24,174 nt of DNA from Nitrospinales bacterium (GTDB taxonomy: Bacteria; Nitrospinota; Nitrospinia; Nitrospinales; JAJDAT01). The notes beneath the pieces were generated by a model. That model made no database searches and was not told where the DNA came from. It worked only from the letters and a program-made list of their open reading frames with translations. Shown here piece by piece: positions 51 to 21,978 of this stretch. The position numbers and the translations under genes were made by a program. Position 1 is the first letter of the stretch. Each line of letters opens with the position of its first letter. The DNA lies in assembly GCA_046757665.1 (NCBI GenBank), contig JBHHYO010000039.1, positions 1 through 24,174 of the forward strand. Reading direction: 5' to 3'.

Positions 51-160
51 AGTGCTTCATTGCAAAAATCGCTCTTCGACAGGCTCAGGCCGACAAAATG
101 ATTGTCACGCTGAGCCCGTTGAAGCGTGAACTTCAAACGCGAACTTTGTAGCGAAGCACT
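51..160. mobile_element. MITE-like element (16-bp imperfect terminal inverted repeats) enclosing a REP-like palindrome
   Basis: AGTGCTTCATTGCAAA (51-66) vs TTTGTAGCGAAGCACT (145-160), 13/16 inverted match. Internal inverted pair CTTCGACAGGCTCAG (74-88) / CTGAGCCCGTTGAAG (110-124), 13/15. No transposase. Confidence 0.6.
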
Positions 161-5367: not shown

Positions 5368-6648
5368 TCAGGAGTCGGCGGCGCAACGGAAGCCGACGCC
5401 CTCGGCGCGCAGGTCGTGCCAGAGCCCACTGCGGTTGGCGGAGCGCAGTTCGCCGGGGCCGGTGTTCCAGCCGCCGCCGCGAATGCCTTTTGCCTCCGTC
5501 GGCGGCGGTCCTTTGGGATTTTCCCTGGGGCTGAACCGGTAATAATGCTCGTCCATCCAGTCCGCCACCCACTCGCCCACGTTGCCCGCCATGTCGTGAA
5601 GTCCGAAGGCGTTGGCGGTGAATGACCCCACCGGCGCGGTGCGCGGAAAGCCGTCGGTCGCGGTCGCTACCCGCACATTCAATTCGCAGGCGCTGTCGCA
5701 AAAGTTGGCGTACTTGCCGTCGATGCCGTCTCCCCAATAATAATTGCTAACCGAACCGGCGCGCGCCGCGTATTCCCATTCGGCTTCCGTGGGCAGGCGC
5801 TTGCCCGATTTTTTGCAAAAAGCATCGGCCTCGTCCCAGGTCACGCTGTCCACCGGCAGGTCGGGTCCGGGGTTTTGCGACGGATTGGACTCCATCATCA
5901 ACTGAAAAGCCCTTTGGGTGACTTCGTGCTTGTCCATGAGGAACGAGGCGACGCAAACCTCATGCGCGGGTTGCTCGTCCGGACTGCCCGATGCACTGCC
6001 CATGAGATAGCATCCGCCCGGAATGGCGACCTTTTCTATCGGGGCGGACTGCTGGGAAGCGGCGATGATGCCTTTATTGACAACCGCCTTGAGTTCTCTT
6101 ACCCGCTCGTATGTCGTCCGCAGAACGCCGACGTATTTTATCCGCACCTGGTACTGGGGGACGAGTTTCATTTTCCCCGACTTTTTAAAAAACAGGCGGT
6201 AGTGAGGGATGGGCTCGGTCAATTTCAAGTCGAGGTAATTTTTCATATTGTTTTTGCCGCTTTCCGGGGCGACCACGGTTTCGTCCACCAGCTCGGCTTC
6301 CAGAGGCTCGGCCTGGCCCTTCTCGAATACCAGCACGTTGCGGCCATGGGCGACGGGCATTGCCAGAATACGGTCAACAAAGACCTTGGCCTCGCTGAAT
6401 TTTCCCAGCTTGATTTTCACTTCCGCCAGGGATTTCAAAATGCGCGGGTTATCCGGCTCCAATGCCAGGGCGCGCTCGAAGGCGCGTTCCGCCTCGGAGA
6501 ATTTTTTGTCGGCCCATGCCTTGTCGCCGGCGGCGGCCAGGACGGCCAGGTCCTCCCCGGCCGCGCTGATAGCAAAAAGAGGGAGCGCCAGGGCAAACCC
6601 AAGAATCAACAGATAGCGCGTAAAAAATGTGTCCTTTTCTTGCGTCAT
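5368..6648 (-). CDS. Exported TPR-containing protein with C-terminal FGE/SUMF1-fold domain
   Basis: Hydrophobic N-terminal signal; TPR-like AERAFERALALEPDN; FGE-fold motifs MDKHEVT, RLPTEAEWEYAAR, NAFGLHDMAGNVGEW, RGGGW, GFRCA. Confidence 0.85.
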   Translation of the reverse strand: MTQEKDTFFTRYLLILGFALALPLFAISAAGEDLAVLAAAGDKAWADKKFSEAERAFERALALEPDNPRILKSLAEVKIKLGKFSEAKVFVDRILAMPVAHGRNVLVFEKGQAEPLEAELVDETVVAPESGKNNMKNYLDLKLTEPIPHYRLFFKKSGKMKLVPQYQVRIKYVGVLRTTYERVRELKAVVNKGIIAASQQSAPIEKVAIPGGCYLMGSASGSPDEQPAHEVCVASFLMDKHEVTQRAFQLMMESNPSQNPGPDLPVDSVTWDEADAFCKKSGKRLPTEAEWEYAARAGSVSNYYWGDGIDGKYANFCDSACELNVRVATATDGFPRTAPVGSFTANAFGLHDMAGNVGEWVADWMDEHYYRFSPRENPKGPPPTEAKGIRGGGWNTGPGELRSANRSGLWHDLRAEGVGFRCAADS

Positions 6649-6789
6649 GTAAACGTCCTCAATCGAAAGAATTTATTGAAACCTGTCGCGGAGTTGGCGG
6701 TGTTTCCGCCGCCACATCATTATACGCTTTCGGGTTTGCCGGTCCGCAAGAGGAAAATTTCGTCTTGAACCAACACCTACCCCCTGCCG

Positions 6790-7402
6790 CCTTTCAACCT
6801 GCCGGGTCGAAAGGGCTTCCGCCAGCGCATACCTGCACTCCACGCTATATGTAAGGGATAAAAACGGAGGCCGGAGGCGGGAGACCGGAAAAAGCTTTAA
6901 ACCGCAAAGGCGCCAAGGGCGCAAAGGAAAAAGCCCCCCAGCCCCCTTCCAGAAGGAGAGCAAATTTCAAATGGGGTTTTTCTGTGTTCATCTGTGTACA
7001 TCGGTGGTTAGATTTTTTCTTTTCTTTGCGCCCTCTGCGCCTTTGCGGTGATTTCGGCATGGTAAATTTTAATCTTCAAACGGCGGGGTTCGGCATGGGA
7101 AAATATGAAACAAAAATATCTTTTAATATCAATATATTATAATAATATTTTTAAAGCTTTTTCGAGGACGGTTTTTCCGCAAAATCCGGTCATTTTTTAC
7201 CTGACGGGAGAGTTGGAGAACCGGTTGCATAACAAGGGGTTGTCGTCTTTGCAGGCTGACATTTAGACTATTTCGTTCCTCGTTTTTCAAAAATTTTTTT
7301 TTCGTAAAAACCGGCCCGGTCAGGGTTTTTGAAAACCTGGATTCGCTCAACTTATTTGAAACAAGGGGGTTGGATTAACGGATATGGACTGCTCGGTCAG
7401 GC
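6790..7402. repeat. Copy 1 of a ~600-bp composite non-coding repeat (terminal hairpin, arm A 6821-6893, variable palindromic slot 6902-7048, arm B 7045-7402)
   Basis: 6821-6893 matches the reverse complement of 21882-21954 at 65/73. 7045-7287 matches the reverse complement of 21499-21741 at 200/243 without gaps. Weaker similarity continues to GTCAGGC (7396-7402 vs 21383-21389). Confidence 0.92.
6901..7049. repeat. REP-like long palindrome with nested half-palindromes
   Basis: ACCGCAAAGGCGCCAAGGGCGCAAAG (6901-6926) pairs with CTTTGCGCCCTCTGCGCCTTTGCGGT (7024-7049). The loop contains CCCCCCAGCCCCCTTCCAGAAGGAGAG (6934-6960) and TCTGTGTTCA-TCTGTGTACA-TCGGTGGTT (6981-7009). Confidence 0.85.
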
Positions 7403-7430
7403 GTGGGGTTCAAGGCGCCCGGCCGCCCGG

Positions 7431-8258
7431 CTAAACCAGATGGAGGGTGAGAACGTGGTTGATTTGCAGTACCGGCGGGCCGGCGGGTTTTGCTTTCAGG
7501 ACAAAGGTCTGTCCGTCGCGGGTTCCCCTGGGAACGAAAAATTTGATCGCGCCCTGAATGGTGTTCAGGGTCAGCACCCGGCCATTGCCGATGTCTTCCC
7601 GGGGCACCGTCATTTCATAGAAGAAATTCGTGGTTCCGGGGCTGATGACTCCTCCCGGGACCACGCGGATCTTCAGGAGCAAGTCGCCGCGCCGCCCTTT
7701 AATGAAACTTTTGCCGCCTTTTTCGGAGAGCAGGAGTTCGATCGGATTCTGCGTGGTGGCGGGGATTTTGACTCGAAAGCTCTCGGAGGGCGTTCGCACT
7801 TTGATCGTGCCGCCGGTGGCGGCGGCTCCGGCGTCCAGGGTGACGGCTTTTTCGACATCCAGGAGAAAGGCTTTTCTCTCGAACTCGAACAGATTCTGCT
7901 TCATGCGCTCTGCCCATTCTTGAAACCGCTGGCGGGTTTTCTCGGGCACACAGTTTTCAACCACCCGTTGCAACGTATTGAAAAGTCCGCCTGGATTCCT
8001 TGCCGCCATGCCCGGCGCGGCGGGATGGCGAACCGCGCGCCCGGTTTGAAGCGCCTTGTAATGGCGGTCCAATTTATTGTAAGCTTGGGAGATTGTTTTG
8101 AAGCGGGCTTCGTGGGCCGGATTGCCCCGGTTCATATCGGGATGGTAACGCCGCGCCAGGACGCGGTAGGCTTTTTTTACCTCATCCCAACCCGCACCTC
8201 GAGGGATGTTCAACGCTCTGTAGCAGTCGGGAATGCGCATCGAAATTTCAGGATACAT
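7431..8258 (-). CDS. DnaJ-domain protein (CbpA/class B-like, no zinc finger)
   Basis: J domain KKAYRVLARRYHPDMN..FKTISQAY; DnaJ C-terminal-like GRRGDLLLKIRV; no CxxCxGxG repeats. Start could be 8240. Confidence 0.8.
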   Translation of the reverse strand: MYPEISMRIPDCYRALNIPRGAGWDEVKKAYRVLARRYHPDMNRGNPAHEARFKTISQAYNKLDRHYKALQTGRAVRHPAAPGMAARNPGGLFNTLQRVVENCVPEKTRQRFQEWAERMKQNLFEFERKAFLLDVEKAVTLDAGAAATGGTIKVRTPSESFRVKIPATTQNPIELLLSEKGGKSFIKGRRGDLLLKIRVVPGGVISPGTTNFFYEMTVPREDIGNGRVLTLNTIQGAIKFFVPRGTRDGQTFVLKAKPAGPPVLQINHVLTLHLV

Positions 8259-8404
8259 GATTTATGCCAAATCCGCGAAACACCGATTGATCAAAATAGT
8301 GTGTTGATTTTTTTGTGGTTAAAGCTTGAAGGATTTTTCATAAAAACGCAAGGGGTCGGCAAAATTTTCCGGGTTCGCCGGATTTTTTTCACCACCGGAT
8401 TATC

Positions 8405-9448
8405 ATGAACAACCTGATCGGTTACTCCGAAAAACAACTGCAACGGATATTGTCCGATTGGCGGGAAAAGCCTTATCGCACCTGCCAGATATTGACATGG
8501 GTTTACCACCATGGGGCGAGGGATTTCGACCTCATGAGCAACCTGTCGAAGGACTTGCGAAACCGGTTGAAGGAGCATTTTTGTTTCGCCCTGCCGGCAA
8601 TCCGCAATAAAACCCGGTCGCGGGACGGCTCCATAAAATATCTTTTCGAGCTGGCGGACGGATCGACGATCGAAAGCGTCTGGATGCCGTCGGAAAACCG
8701 GGACACGCTGTGCATTTCCACGCAGGTGGGATGCCGGCTGGCCTGCTCCTTCTGCCTGACGGGGCGGATGGGGCTCAAGAGAAACCTGAGTTCGGCGGAG
8801 ATCGTCGGCCAGATCATCGCGGTCAACGAAGATTTGCCGGAGGAGCAGAGGCCTTCCAACATCGTGATCATGGGCATGGGCGAGCCGCTCGACAATTACG
8901 ACGAGGTGGTCCGAGCCGTCGGCTTGATGGTTTCCCCGCACGCCATGAAGATATCGACCCGGAAAATAACATTATCGACTTCGGGCCTGGTCGACAAAAT
9001 CCGGCGGTTTGCCGGGGAGAATCTGCATGTCAATCTTGCCGTTTCCCTGAACGCCACCGAGGAGGCGACGCGCACCCGGATCATGCCGATCAACAAAAAA
9101 CATTCGCTGGAGGAGCTTTTGCGCTGTCTGCGCGACTATCCCTTGAAACCAACGCGCCGGATTACGTTTGAATATGTTTTGATCGAGGGCGTCAACGACA
9201 GCCGGGAAGACGCCGTCCGCCTGGCGAAACTGTTACGGGGAATTCGTTGCAAGATCAACCTGATCCCCTTCAACGATTTCGATGGGGTGGCGTACCGTCC
9301 GCCATCGGAAGAAACGGTTTTGTTTTTCCACGAGTACCTGCTTGCGAGGAACTTTTCCGTTTTCATCCGCAAAAACCGGGGTACGGACATTCTGGGCGCG
9401 TGCGGGCAACTGGCGGCGCGGTCTTTCGACACGGCGTCCGCCAATTAG
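8405..9448 (+). CDS. rlmN: Dual-specificity 23S rRNA A2503 / tRNA A37 C2-methyltransferase RlmN
   Basis: TLCISTQVGCRLACSFC, MGMGEPLDN, LAVSLNA, FEYVLI, NLIPFN, DILGACGQL. Confidence 0.97.
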   Translation: MNNLIGYSEKQLQRILSDWREKPYRTCQILTWVYHHGARDFDLMSNLSKDLRNRLKEHFCFALPAIRNKTRSRDGSIKYLFELADGSTIESVWMPSENRDTLCISTQVGCRLACSFCLTGRMGLKRNLSSAEIVGQIIAVNEDLPEEQRPSNIVIMGMGEPLDNYDEVVRAVGLMVSPHAMKISTRKITLSTSGLVDKIRRFAGENLHVNLAVSLNATEEATRTRIMPINKKHSLEELLRCLRDYPLKPTRRITFEYVLIEGVNDSREDAVRLAKLLRGIRCKINLIPFNDFDGVAYRPPSEETVLFFHEYLLARNFSVFIRKNRGTDILGACGQLAARSFDTASAN

Positions 9449-18529: not shown

Positions 18530-18564
18530 AGGATTCACCTGCCTCCTTCAACAAGAGACCTTAA

Positions 18565-18678
18565 GAGTCTTTTGCATAATATTTGCTTGTCATTGCGAGG
18601 CGGCTCCGCCGACGAAGCAATCCAGAAAGGACCCATGACGCCGGGACGGCAAAGAATCTCGACTTATGCAAAGCTCTC
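18565..18678. mobile_element. MITE-like element between aceE and aceF carrying a half REP-like palindrome
   Basis: GAGTCTTTTGCATAA (18565-18579) vs TTATGCAAAGCTCTC (18664-18678), 12/15 inverted match. Interior 18589-18636 is 45/48 identical to 21750-21797. Confidence 0.7.
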
Positions 18679-18680
18679 CT

Positions 18681-21353
<2,673 letters not shown>

Positions 21354-21382
21354 CCTCGCCGCCTTTCGCGTGGAAGCCGCCT

Positions 21383-21978
21383 GCCTGACTATTTCATCCG
21401 CAATCGCCGAAGCAACTCCCCCGTTTTAAAAGATTTGTCCCGAATCCCCGGCCAAAAAACCCTGACCGGCCGGCTTTTTCACAAAAAAAAATTTTTCAAA
21501 AAACGAGGAACGAAATAGTCAAAACGTCAGCCTGCAAACCCAGCAACCTCTTGTTATACAATGGACTTTCCAACTCACCGGTCAGGTAAAAAATGAACGG
21601 ATTTCGCGGAAAAACCACCCTAGAAAATGCCTGAGAAATAGCCTTGTAATATATGAATATTAAAAGAAATTTTTATCACTTATTTTCTCATACCGAAGGC
21701 CGCTTTTTGAAGATTAAAATTTACAATACCGAAATCACCGCGTTCGATCGTCGTTGCGAGGAGGCTCAGCCGACGAAGCAATCCAGAAAGGACCCATTCC
21801 CACCGGGCGTGGCCCGGCTGGATCGCCACGCCGCCGCTGGCGGCGGCTCGCGATGACATCGAAGCGGAGAAACCGTCGTTGTTTTCCCGGTCTCCCGTCT
21901 CCGGCCTCCATTTTTATCCCTTACATATAGCGCCAAGTGCAGGTATGTGCCGGCCCCGCACCTTGAAAAACAAGGCGC
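21383..21978. repeat. Copy 2 (inverted) of the ~600-bp composite non-coding repeat (arm B 21383-21741, variable slot 21738-21867, arm A 21882-21954, terminal hairpin 21958-21978)
   Basis: Reverse-complement match to 6821-6893 and 7045-7402 as described for copy 1. The slot content is unrelated to that of copy 1. Confidence 0.92.
21738..21867. repeat. REP-like branched palindrome (GTCRTTGCGAG...GCAATC / GATYGC...CTCGCRATGAC type)
   Basis: CCGCGTTCGATCGTCGTTGCGAG pairs with CTCGCGATGACATCGAAGCGG; GCAATCCAG (21778-21786) pairs with CTGGATCGC (21818-21826); side hairpins at 21803-21817 and 21830-21847. Confidence 0.85.

Follow-up and report, generated by a model that had tools for sequence, protein, structure and literature searches.

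The closest known kinds of repeat to the element described here are the BOX, BIME and NIME mosaics. BOX elements of Streptococcus pneumoniae and S. suis are built in the order boxA - boxB(n) - boxC, with boxE/boxF forms as well, and in S. suis the end modules measure 115 and 133 nt (PMC3049150, excerpts). The BIMEs of enterobacteria and the NIMEs of Neisseria (REP/dRS3 units) are intergenic and consist of alternating hairpin REPs interleaved with other modules, and in the four described families of CGTC-tagged REPs the stem measures 8-9 bp and the loop 4-5 nt (Di Nocera et al., 2013; PMC3733652, excerpts). In addition, Chenal et al. (2025) described small single-domain GIY-YIG proteins (Ssn) that cut single-stranded DNA beside CGTCAT-headed hairpin repeats (NTS/SRM); in the available part of that paper, these repeats typically flank the Ssn gene as inverted hairpins (PMC11893778).

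The repeat analyzed here is a ~630-nt non-coding, dispersed mosaic in the genome of a Nitrospinales bacterium (GCA_046757665.1). It shares with BOX, as the excerpts of PMC3049150 present it, a composite intergenic structure, conserved end modules around a variable middle, a strain-dependent length and a frequent clustering with, and insertion into, other repeat families; conserved terminal modules flank a variable middle in 22 pairs here, and the large indels of an orthologous copy from a related strain fall in the middle only. The two differ in that the middle of BOX consists of a single module repeated in tandem, while here it is made of unrelated hairpin modules; in that BOX has terminal inverted repeats (TIRs) and target duplications, while neither was seen at the scaffold ends by eye and flank comparison; and in that the arms here are longer (about 120 and 280 nt), lineage-specific and accompanied by two slots. 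Unlike BIMEs and NIMEs, this mosaic is built on one long lineage-specific scaffold with fixed insertion zones, and has no RAYT gene.

The window, by which we mean the whole 24,174-nt stretch of DNA analyzed (contig JBHHYO010000039.1), contains two inverted copies of the element: copy 1 at 6770-7401 (+) and copy 2 from 21384 to at least 21954 (-). A repeat search within the window paired arm A over 73 nt (6821-6893 / 21882-21954, 89% complementary) and arm B over 266 nt (7045-7310 / 21476-21741, 82% complementary), and when copy 1 is aligned with copy 2 the arms are alignable and the interiors are not. Flank comparison showed that the family is longer than the arms originally noted: its start, marked by a motif resembling GCCGACACCTMCCCCC, is ~50 nt 5' of arm A, the flanks turning unique upstream of ACACCT, and past the terminal GGTCAGG of arm B there is a second variable stretch followed by a short conserved end (..GCGGGCGGGNNCGGTCAGG), so that GGTCAGG ends both arm B and the short 3' end of the element. 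The order of parts is 5' arm, GGAGRCS heptads, slot 1, 8-mer array, 280-nt AT-rich arm B, slot 2 and 3' end. The features of the window are as follows.

6770..6863 (+): copy 1, 5' arm, from the family start (consensus GCCGACACCTMCCCCC) to the core GCATACCTGCA..GCGCTATATGTAAGGGATAAAAA (28-copy alignment)
6864..6900 (+): copy 1, GGAGRCS heptad run closing arm A, plus a short linker
6901..7049 (+): copy 1, slot 1 content, the canonical interior of the family (all hits lie between family arms; z -5.9)
6901-6926 (+): copy 1 interior, left 8-mer array
6927-6975 (+): copy 1 interior, C-rich hairpin part
6976-7019 (+): copy 1 interior, TTCTGTGTTCATCTGTG..GGTGGTTAG part
7020-7049 (+): copy 1 interior, right 8-mer array
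7050..7324 (+): copy 1, AT-rich arm B, up to the first GGTCAGG, with three near-invariant blocks inside
7325..7401 (+): copy 1, slot 2 and 3' terminal CGGTCAGG (7394-7401) (flank comparison of 30 arm B ends)
18561..18682 (+): solo, internally deleted MITE with one REP unit, filling the pyruvate dehydrogenase E1-E2 spacer
21384..21460 (-): copy 2, slot 2 and 3' terminal AGTCAGG (reverse complement of 21384-21390)
21461..21741 (-): copy 2, arm B, 82% identical to copy 1
21738..21881 (-): copy 2, slot 1, the inner part of a separate MITE-like repeat and its degraded flank beside the heptads
21882..21954 (-): copy 2, arm A core with heptads (repeat search, alignment and flank comparison)

A sequence-only reading of this DNA had placed unrelated palindromic interiors at the same position in the two copies, and both sequences were found where it put them, copy 2 being on the opposite strand. 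Its view of both interiors as long hairpins was also borne out: folded as single-stranded DNA, that of copy 1 (6901-7049) reached -38.0 kcal/mol (z -5.9; 0 of 200 shuffles as good) and that of copy 2 (reverse complement of 21738-21867) -37.7 kcal/mol (z -2.7; 2 of 200 shuffles as good). A 30-nt inverted repeat (6901-6930 / 7020-7049, 90%) closes the interior of copy 1. Upstream of its arm A core (to about 22005), copy 2 has diverged from the 5' extension of the family, and a gap of 31 nt separates its 3' end from the start codon of aceE at 21353.

The genes flanking the two copies are housekeeping genes (an FGE-sulfatase/TPR gene, a DnaJ-like gene, RlmN, and pyruvate dehydrogenase E1 and E2). 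The crude gene call is wrong in one place in the window, where Pfam supports the DnaJ-like gene at 7431-8258 (-), not 7329-8408 (+).

The genome to which the window belongs (2.97 Mb, 160 contigs, 97.6% complete) carries many relatives of these copies. A 541-nt query (6800-7340) gave 73 matches in it, the arm A core 30 blastn matches, and arm B 45 HSPs that fall in about 42 places, often at contig ends. Twenty copies of arm B are full-length, 277-281 nt long and without a large indel, and 123 of the 282 columns in their alignment are invariant; three near-invariant blocks stand amid variable stretches, the 20 copies being otherwise 70-88% alike. Overall arm identity is low because two arm B subfamilies differ in one AT-rich stretch. 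No conserved open reading frame was found in the element, and candidate start codons vary among copies (judged by eye on the arm B alignment). Twenty-two pairs of arm A and arm B (same strand, within 1 kb) enclose intervals of 46-778 nt with diverse content, so the fixed hypervariable position first proposed from the two window copies is general in the family; GGAGRCS heptads are present in most of these 22 elements, in varying unit number.

The family appears confined to a narrow lineage in the collections searched. Arm B was absent from all 40 related genomes of the same order, except for one 36-nt match at E 3e-4; a 21-mer from arm B had 0 exact matches in 185,579 species genomes; and the element had no match among plasmid records. 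Among the papers searched, none on intergenic repetitive elements of Nitrospina was relevant.

In the 22 elements, slot 1 is filled by mosaics of a few hairpin modules, with at least six unrelated modules represented.

MITE-like core: 10 of 22 elements (each orientation in five of them)
Parts of the canonical interior: 10 of 22 elements, with C95, C1 and C54 carrying them in reverse orientation to the arms and C41 carrying both orientations
GC-rich hairpin: 5 of 22 elements
TTCGAC..GCTCA hairpin: 4 of 22 elements
Another hairpin module: 2 of 22 elements
Insertion-sequence (IS) remnant of 565 nt: 1 of 22 elements (C6)

The IS remnant contains a 133-residue frame without a start codon that matches the C-terminal part of DDE_Tnp_1_6 (E 2.6e-17). 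Two short elements match none of the modules, and a third matches only the mirror of the 8-mer array. Inside slot 1 the modules are placed variably, in both orientations, and are often truncated. The diversity predicted for these intervals is therefore present in the genome, one transposase fragment included, but it is made up of dispersed repeats and not of unique cargo.

Directly before arm B, 19 of the 22 elements have an array of at least two 8-mer units (CTTTGCG.. / CTCTGTG..). Copy 2 is one of the three exceptions, with 0 array units and the last GCGG alone kept. The sequence-only reading had both interiors closed by CCGC/GCGG and joined to arm B at a constant junction. GCGG does stand immediately 5' of TGATTTCGG at the arm B junction in both window copies; since it is the last unit of the 8-mer array, however, this "constant junction" belongs to the array and is part of the scaffold. 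The left CCGC opens the mirror array as its first unit in copy 1, whereas in copy 2 it comes from the MITE flank, and because its origin differs in this way the closure is not a shared family feature; as a 4-nt match, it is no more than chance would give.

The 149-nt palindromic interior of copy 1 is the canonical one for the family: 11 of 11 matches of at least 60 nt lie between family arms, beside arm B copies, and none is free-standing. It is 85-95% identical to the other copies, with the conserved arm blocks at 86-97%, and since interior and arm blocks are alike in this respect there is no sign of recent exchange. A recent exchange of cargo between the subfamilies had seemed a candidate, the interior being 93% identical to that of C95 and the arms 72%, and was rejected when the arm blocks proved equally similar once the AT-rich part was left out. 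The occurrence of the canonical interior in both orientations fits inversion by recombination between its 26-30-nt inverted arrays, and re-insertion is also possible.

The cargo of copy 2 is of another kind. It is an 89% direct repeat of window positions 18582-18636, within the solo copy at 18561-18682, which shows that this cargo exists apart from the arms. Near-full copies of the MITE core number 72 genome-wide: slot 1 has 10 of them, intergenic DNA elsewhere has 50, and the remaining 12 fall within crudely called ORFs. Their usual setting is a ~190-nt element with TIRs GAGACCTTTGCATAAG / CTTATGCAAAGGTCTC (59 full cores listed). Copy 2 is without the outer part of the MITE, TIR included, on the arm B side, and on the arm A side its degraded flank ends, as judged by eye, in GGTCTCC. 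The arm A heptad has this sequence as its complement, a hint that the MITE inserted at the heptads or recombined with them and that the canonical interior and the array were deleted afterwards. Short direct repeats near the ends of several MITE copies were seen by eye only, and no cognate transposase for the MITE was found in the genome.

The MITE core is itself a doublet of two inverted hairpin units, 85 of the one and 83 of the other being complete. C or T precedes GTC at the head of 80/85 and 82/83 units, the tail is CCAG in 78/85 and 76/83, and the stems begin with AT (ATTGC.. / ATCGC..). From head to stem end the units measure 28-33 nt, with longer and imperfect arms. Among 84 pairs of heads, 82 are spaced 32-108 nt and none is placed around a gene-sized insert. 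Single REP units of the copy 2 type occur in 22 of the 40 related genomes of the same order.

REPINs and REPtrons are inverted REP doublets with a GTAG head, accompanied by a RAYT (Y1 transposase) gene. Such doublets are present here, but the head is YGTC, not GTAG, and no RAYT gene accompanies them, Y1/RAYT (PF01797) having 0 matches in the 97.6%-complete genome. With the CGTC-tagged REPs, as the excerpts of Di Nocera et al. (2013; PMC3733652) present them, the units of copy 2 share the CGTC/TGTC head, the AT stem start, the CCA(G) tail and the arrangement as inverted dimers. Judged by sequence, then, these cargo units bear the marks (head, AT stem start, tail) of the CGTC-tagged REP superfamily. 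They differ in size and form, being 28-33 nt units outside the stem and loop dimensions that those excerpts give for families 1-4, and in that the dimer here is embedded in a ~190-nt element with TIRs of its own.

The genome has two matches to the GIY-YIG domain (PF01541), one in a 621-residue frame, which we take to be UvrC, and the other in a 106-residue ORF (C47:15712-16032, -; 50.8 bits). Inverted TTCGAC..GCTCA hairpins stand on both sides of this small gene, whose last codons are provided by one of them. The best solved-structure matches of its product are UPF0213 proteins (E 3.4e-14), and NCBIfam returned no match for the 106-aa protein. In the available part of Chenal et al. (2025), Ssn genes are single-domain GIY-YIG genes with inverted hairpin flanks, and the one candidate small GIY-YIG gene here is flanked in the same way; likewise, the NTS starts with CGTCAT and ends with ATCYRG around a hairpin, and the units here run CGTCAT..AATCCAG (PMC11893778). 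A difference is that the flanks of the GIY-YIG gene here are TTCGAC..GCTCA hairpins, not doublet REPs. The SRM search motif given in that part of the paper (PMC11893778) was not enriched in our data, with 18 matches versus 15-18 in five first-order Markov simulations, and none of the papers searched joined GIY-YIG with repetitive extragenic palindromic sequences. The resemblance to the NTS/SRM-Ssn system is clear, and membership of the small protein in Ssn (cd10448) is putative.

Large insertions are limited to slot 1 and to slot 2, after arm B. Inspected by eye, the slot 2 content of 30 arm B ends falls into about five types (with roughly 9, 6, 7, 3 and 4 members, one end being unreadable at a contig end); the rare type with three members is common to copy 1, copy 2 and C104. 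Slot 1 adds up to 5,384 nt, or 1.1% of the intergenic DNA as crudely called; crude gene calls underlie both this intergenic size and the gene-orientation figures given below. The binomial probability that at least 10 of 72 MITE cores would fall in slot 1 by chance is 8e-9, and that for at least five is 1.3e-3, the latter given because several MITE-bearing elements share one junction and are not independent events. Of the strict TTCGAC..GCTCA hairpins, 12 of 22 are found either in slot 1 or in the 130 nt that follow arm B. Given this confinement of insertions and this enrichment of repeats, the slots are either preferred targets or the sole places that tolerate insertions.

A related strain, represented by two contigs from one metagenome scan that are 85-89% identical over syntenic genes, allowed a look at one copy in place. 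In the orthologous element the arms and slot 2 are about 90% identical, with indels of 1 nt only, and slot 1 shows a 34-nt indel and a replaced MITE centre. The differences in orthologous arm B are distributed unevenly, with 2 in the 123 paralog-invariant columns (defined on the other 19 arm B paralogs) versus 28 in the 155 remaining columns (Fisher p 3e-6); differences in the invariant columns being so few, the arm B blocks were preserved in place and the scaffold appears constrained, as far as one orthologous pair can indicate, since gene conversion could mimic selection. At a second locus, the related strain has an element where this genome has unique sequence, and copies are therefore gained or lost between strains. 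Among public reads, two DNA runs of one hydrothermal-vent study contain the stretch, one of them perhaps the source of this DNA, and none of their short-read contigs bridges either element; the read joints and loose ends match the expectation from other genomic copies of the repeats and so carry no inference on slot variation within the population. No public RNA run was listed with this stretch.

Searches for a mobilizing function covered both the window and the genome. No direct-repeat array flanks the arms (repeat search within the window), and no TnpB gene was found in the genome. An IS110-type gene, considered as a mobilizer, is single-copy, with unique flanks and a contig end, and has no link to the arms; the IS fragment in C6, considered as a "parent" of the family, proved to be a unique remnant bounded by an end of its own, and another remnant is located outside the elements. 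No transposase or recombinase is tied to the arms, which speaks against a reading of selfish spread.

How, then, should the slot be understood? It is the hypervariable middle of a dispersed repeat, and we consider it probable that selfish mosaic-repeat dynamics act on a constrained scaffold. The sequence-only reading had proposed other possibilities. An integron holds discrete, attC-bounded cassettes in an array beside an intI recombinase gene, and a CRISPR array consists of direct repeats separated by unique spacers beside constant sequence. A system of integron attI-like or CRISPR-leader-like character, inserting hairpin cassettes at the arm A/arm B junction, would agree with the diverse content at a fixed position (one transposase fragment included), with the near-constant start of arm B and with the over-representation of repeats in slot 1. 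The units themselves tell against such site-specific acquisition, however: they are dispersed repeats, found mostly outside the slot (62 of the 72 MITE cores) and also in genomes without the arms (REP units in 22 relatives). The exchange of cassettes fares no better, as modules of varied position, both orientations and frequent truncation are not what it predicts, and the cargo of copy 1 is the canonical interior of the family. Moreover, the constant junction is the 8-mer array of the scaffold, no repeat-spacer array was found in the window, the slot contents are themselves multi-copy repeats, and the nine window and locus ORFs scanned, neighbouring genes among them, are housekeeping genes or an IS fragment. 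We regard a cassette system as extremely improbable. A structured RNA encoded by the element, with the slot as a variable stem, draws on the folding of both interiors as long hairpins, but the hairpins of double-stranded palindromes fold equally on both strands. BOX, in the excerpts of PMC3049150, offers a precedent for a variable middle that is tolerated in a folded transcript. Against this, Rfam gave 0 matches both at the gathering score and at E <= 1, and arm B lacks a consensus fold on either strand (-9.5 / -9.9 kcal/mol over 282 columns, with a covariation term of +0.21, and single-sequence z scores of +0.9 / -0.6). In the 5' arm, a hairpin that seemed by eye to covary (CCTTT..AAAGG) was set aside, since folding of the 28 copies was no better than that of shuffled sequences (mean z -0.07). 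The orientation of the elements to neighbouring genes is mixed as well, the downstream gene being co-oriented in about half of 26 copies by the crude calls, and overall a structured RNA seems very unlikely.

Two further alternatives give the scaffold a role of its own. It may be a DNA element used by the host, as a protein-binding or promoter module, with the slots as free spacers and the hairpin repeats as passengers. The three near-invariant arm B blocks among variable stretches in 20 copies, and the retention of these block columns at one orthologous locus (2/123 versus 28/155), are in keeping with such a role, and conservation of the blocks at a resident locus would fit host function better than pure selfish DNA. 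The position of copy 2 points the same way: with 31 nt between its end and the start codon of aceE, transcription of that gene has to begin inside the element or run through it. The mixed gene orientation just noted weighs on the other side, as do the arms not found in 40 related genomes and a consensus scan of 6600-7500 that gave one promoter-like site versus 0.7 expected (and one terminator-like site versus 2.3). We know of no protein that binds the scaffold, and we judge a host element to be unlikely, if worth keeping in mind. Alternatively, the scaffold could be a constrained, protein-bound "landing pad", a dedicated trap or reservoir, and not just a tolerant spot, whose two fixed slots capture CGTC/TGTC hairpin repeats when a nuclease specific for hairpins, for which the small GIY-YIG protein is a candidate, cleaves a single strand; this is a speculative proposal to which we give little weight. 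A point against the dispersed-repeat reading is that repeats may be enriched in the slots through genuine targeting, and not because insertions are simply tolerated there.

Returning to the dispersed repeat with a hypervariable middle, we infer the following for the sequence of steps in copy 2, for how the element spreads and for what constrains the arms. Independent hairpin repeats and one IS would land in two permissive slots, the canonical interior would invert between its 26-30-nt inverted arrays, and deletions between hairpins or short homologies would reshape the content of the slots. Composite copies may then spread or recombine. In copy 2, the canonical interior and the 8-mer array would have been lost, and an independent MITE-like core, with its two inverted CGTC/TGTC-headed REP hairpins, would have been kept. 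The arms would persist because they are constrained, and our guess is that the constraint lies in the binding of a protein needed either for the spread of the element or for a host function.

This analysis removes the tempting reading of a new cassette-capture system and documents, in its place, a lineage-specific composite repeat in a hydrothermal-vent bacterium. The arm B blocks, apparently unchanged at a resident locus, suggest that the scaffold is not neutral junk. Repeats of this kind also have practical consequences for genomes such as this one, as they break short-read assemblies (many copies are at contig ends) and create spurious ORFs. The units that fill the slots appear to be of the CGTC/NTS-like class, and single-stranded DNA nucleases acting on such hairpins have been described only recently, in Neisseria and Wolbachia. 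If the small GIY-YIG protein cuts these hairpins, the bacterium would offer a natural system in which to study how such repeats spread and pile up.

Members of the family, a dispersed non-coding mosaic of arm A, slot 1, arm B and slot 2, differ both in whether they are present at a site and in whether they are whole. One element lies in a related strain (L039:10620-11187), while the matching site in the window's own genome (G000) carries unique sequence (C25:19620-19400) upstream of a gene that by eye resembles a uroporphyrinogen methyltransferase gene; this is a presence/absence difference, with a single junction visible as the contig ends there. At G000 C3:52500-52870, arm A and two hairpin modules abut a stretch that by eye resembles a tRNA gene. 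No copy of arm B lies within 3 kb, and the arms can therefore occur separately.

The sequences carried in, beside or apart from these elements include an insertion-sequence remnant, a small gene and a MITE-like repeat, the last of the kind that fills slot 1 of copy 2:

G000 C6:57939-58503, DDE transposase remnant, IS1182/IS5-like C-terminal part, in slot 1 of one element
G000 C9:20920-21054, fragment of that IS end (135 nt, 98.5% identity), immediately outside another element
G000 C47:15700-16095 (L042:1396-1791, gene plus hairpins), single-domain GIY-YIG gene, 106 aa
Window 18561-18682, internally deleted MITE copy with one REP unit, in the pyruvate dehydrogenase E1-E2 spacer

The C6 remnant is the sole DDE transposase remnant in the genome, and the 106-aa gene its only small GIY-YIG match. 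Inverted TTCGAC..GCTCA hairpins, a module also found in slot 1 of some elements, flank this gene on both sides, the downstream one encoding its last residues, in an architecture similar to NTS-ssnA-NTS, in which hairpin repeats flank the gene for the Ssn single-stranded DNA nuclease (Chenal et al., 2025, PMC11893778). Hairpin repeats of this type also occupy window 60-160, at the contig start (self-BLAST depth up to 16), and the contig probably breaks there inside a repeat nest.

Two stretches of an FGE-sulfatase/TPR gene (window 5496-5613 and 5721-5868) have 8-17 BLAST matches in the genome, presumably reflecting a paralogous gene family, not repeats. The long plus-strand ORF at 7329-8408, which opposes a DnaJ-like gene (7431-8258, minus strand), matches nothing in Pfam and is probably spurious; here the GC3-based gene caller chose the wrong strand.

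At the pyruvate dehydrogenase locus, the MITE copy makes up nearly all of the 142-nt spacer between E1 (stop 18681) and E2 (start 18538), and is probably co-transcribed as part of the operon. The aceE gene, on the minus strand, has its start codon at 21353, 31 nt past the end of copy 2 of the element (21384-21954, minus strand; window 21354-21390), and therefore either the aceE promoter lies inside the element or transcription reads through across it.
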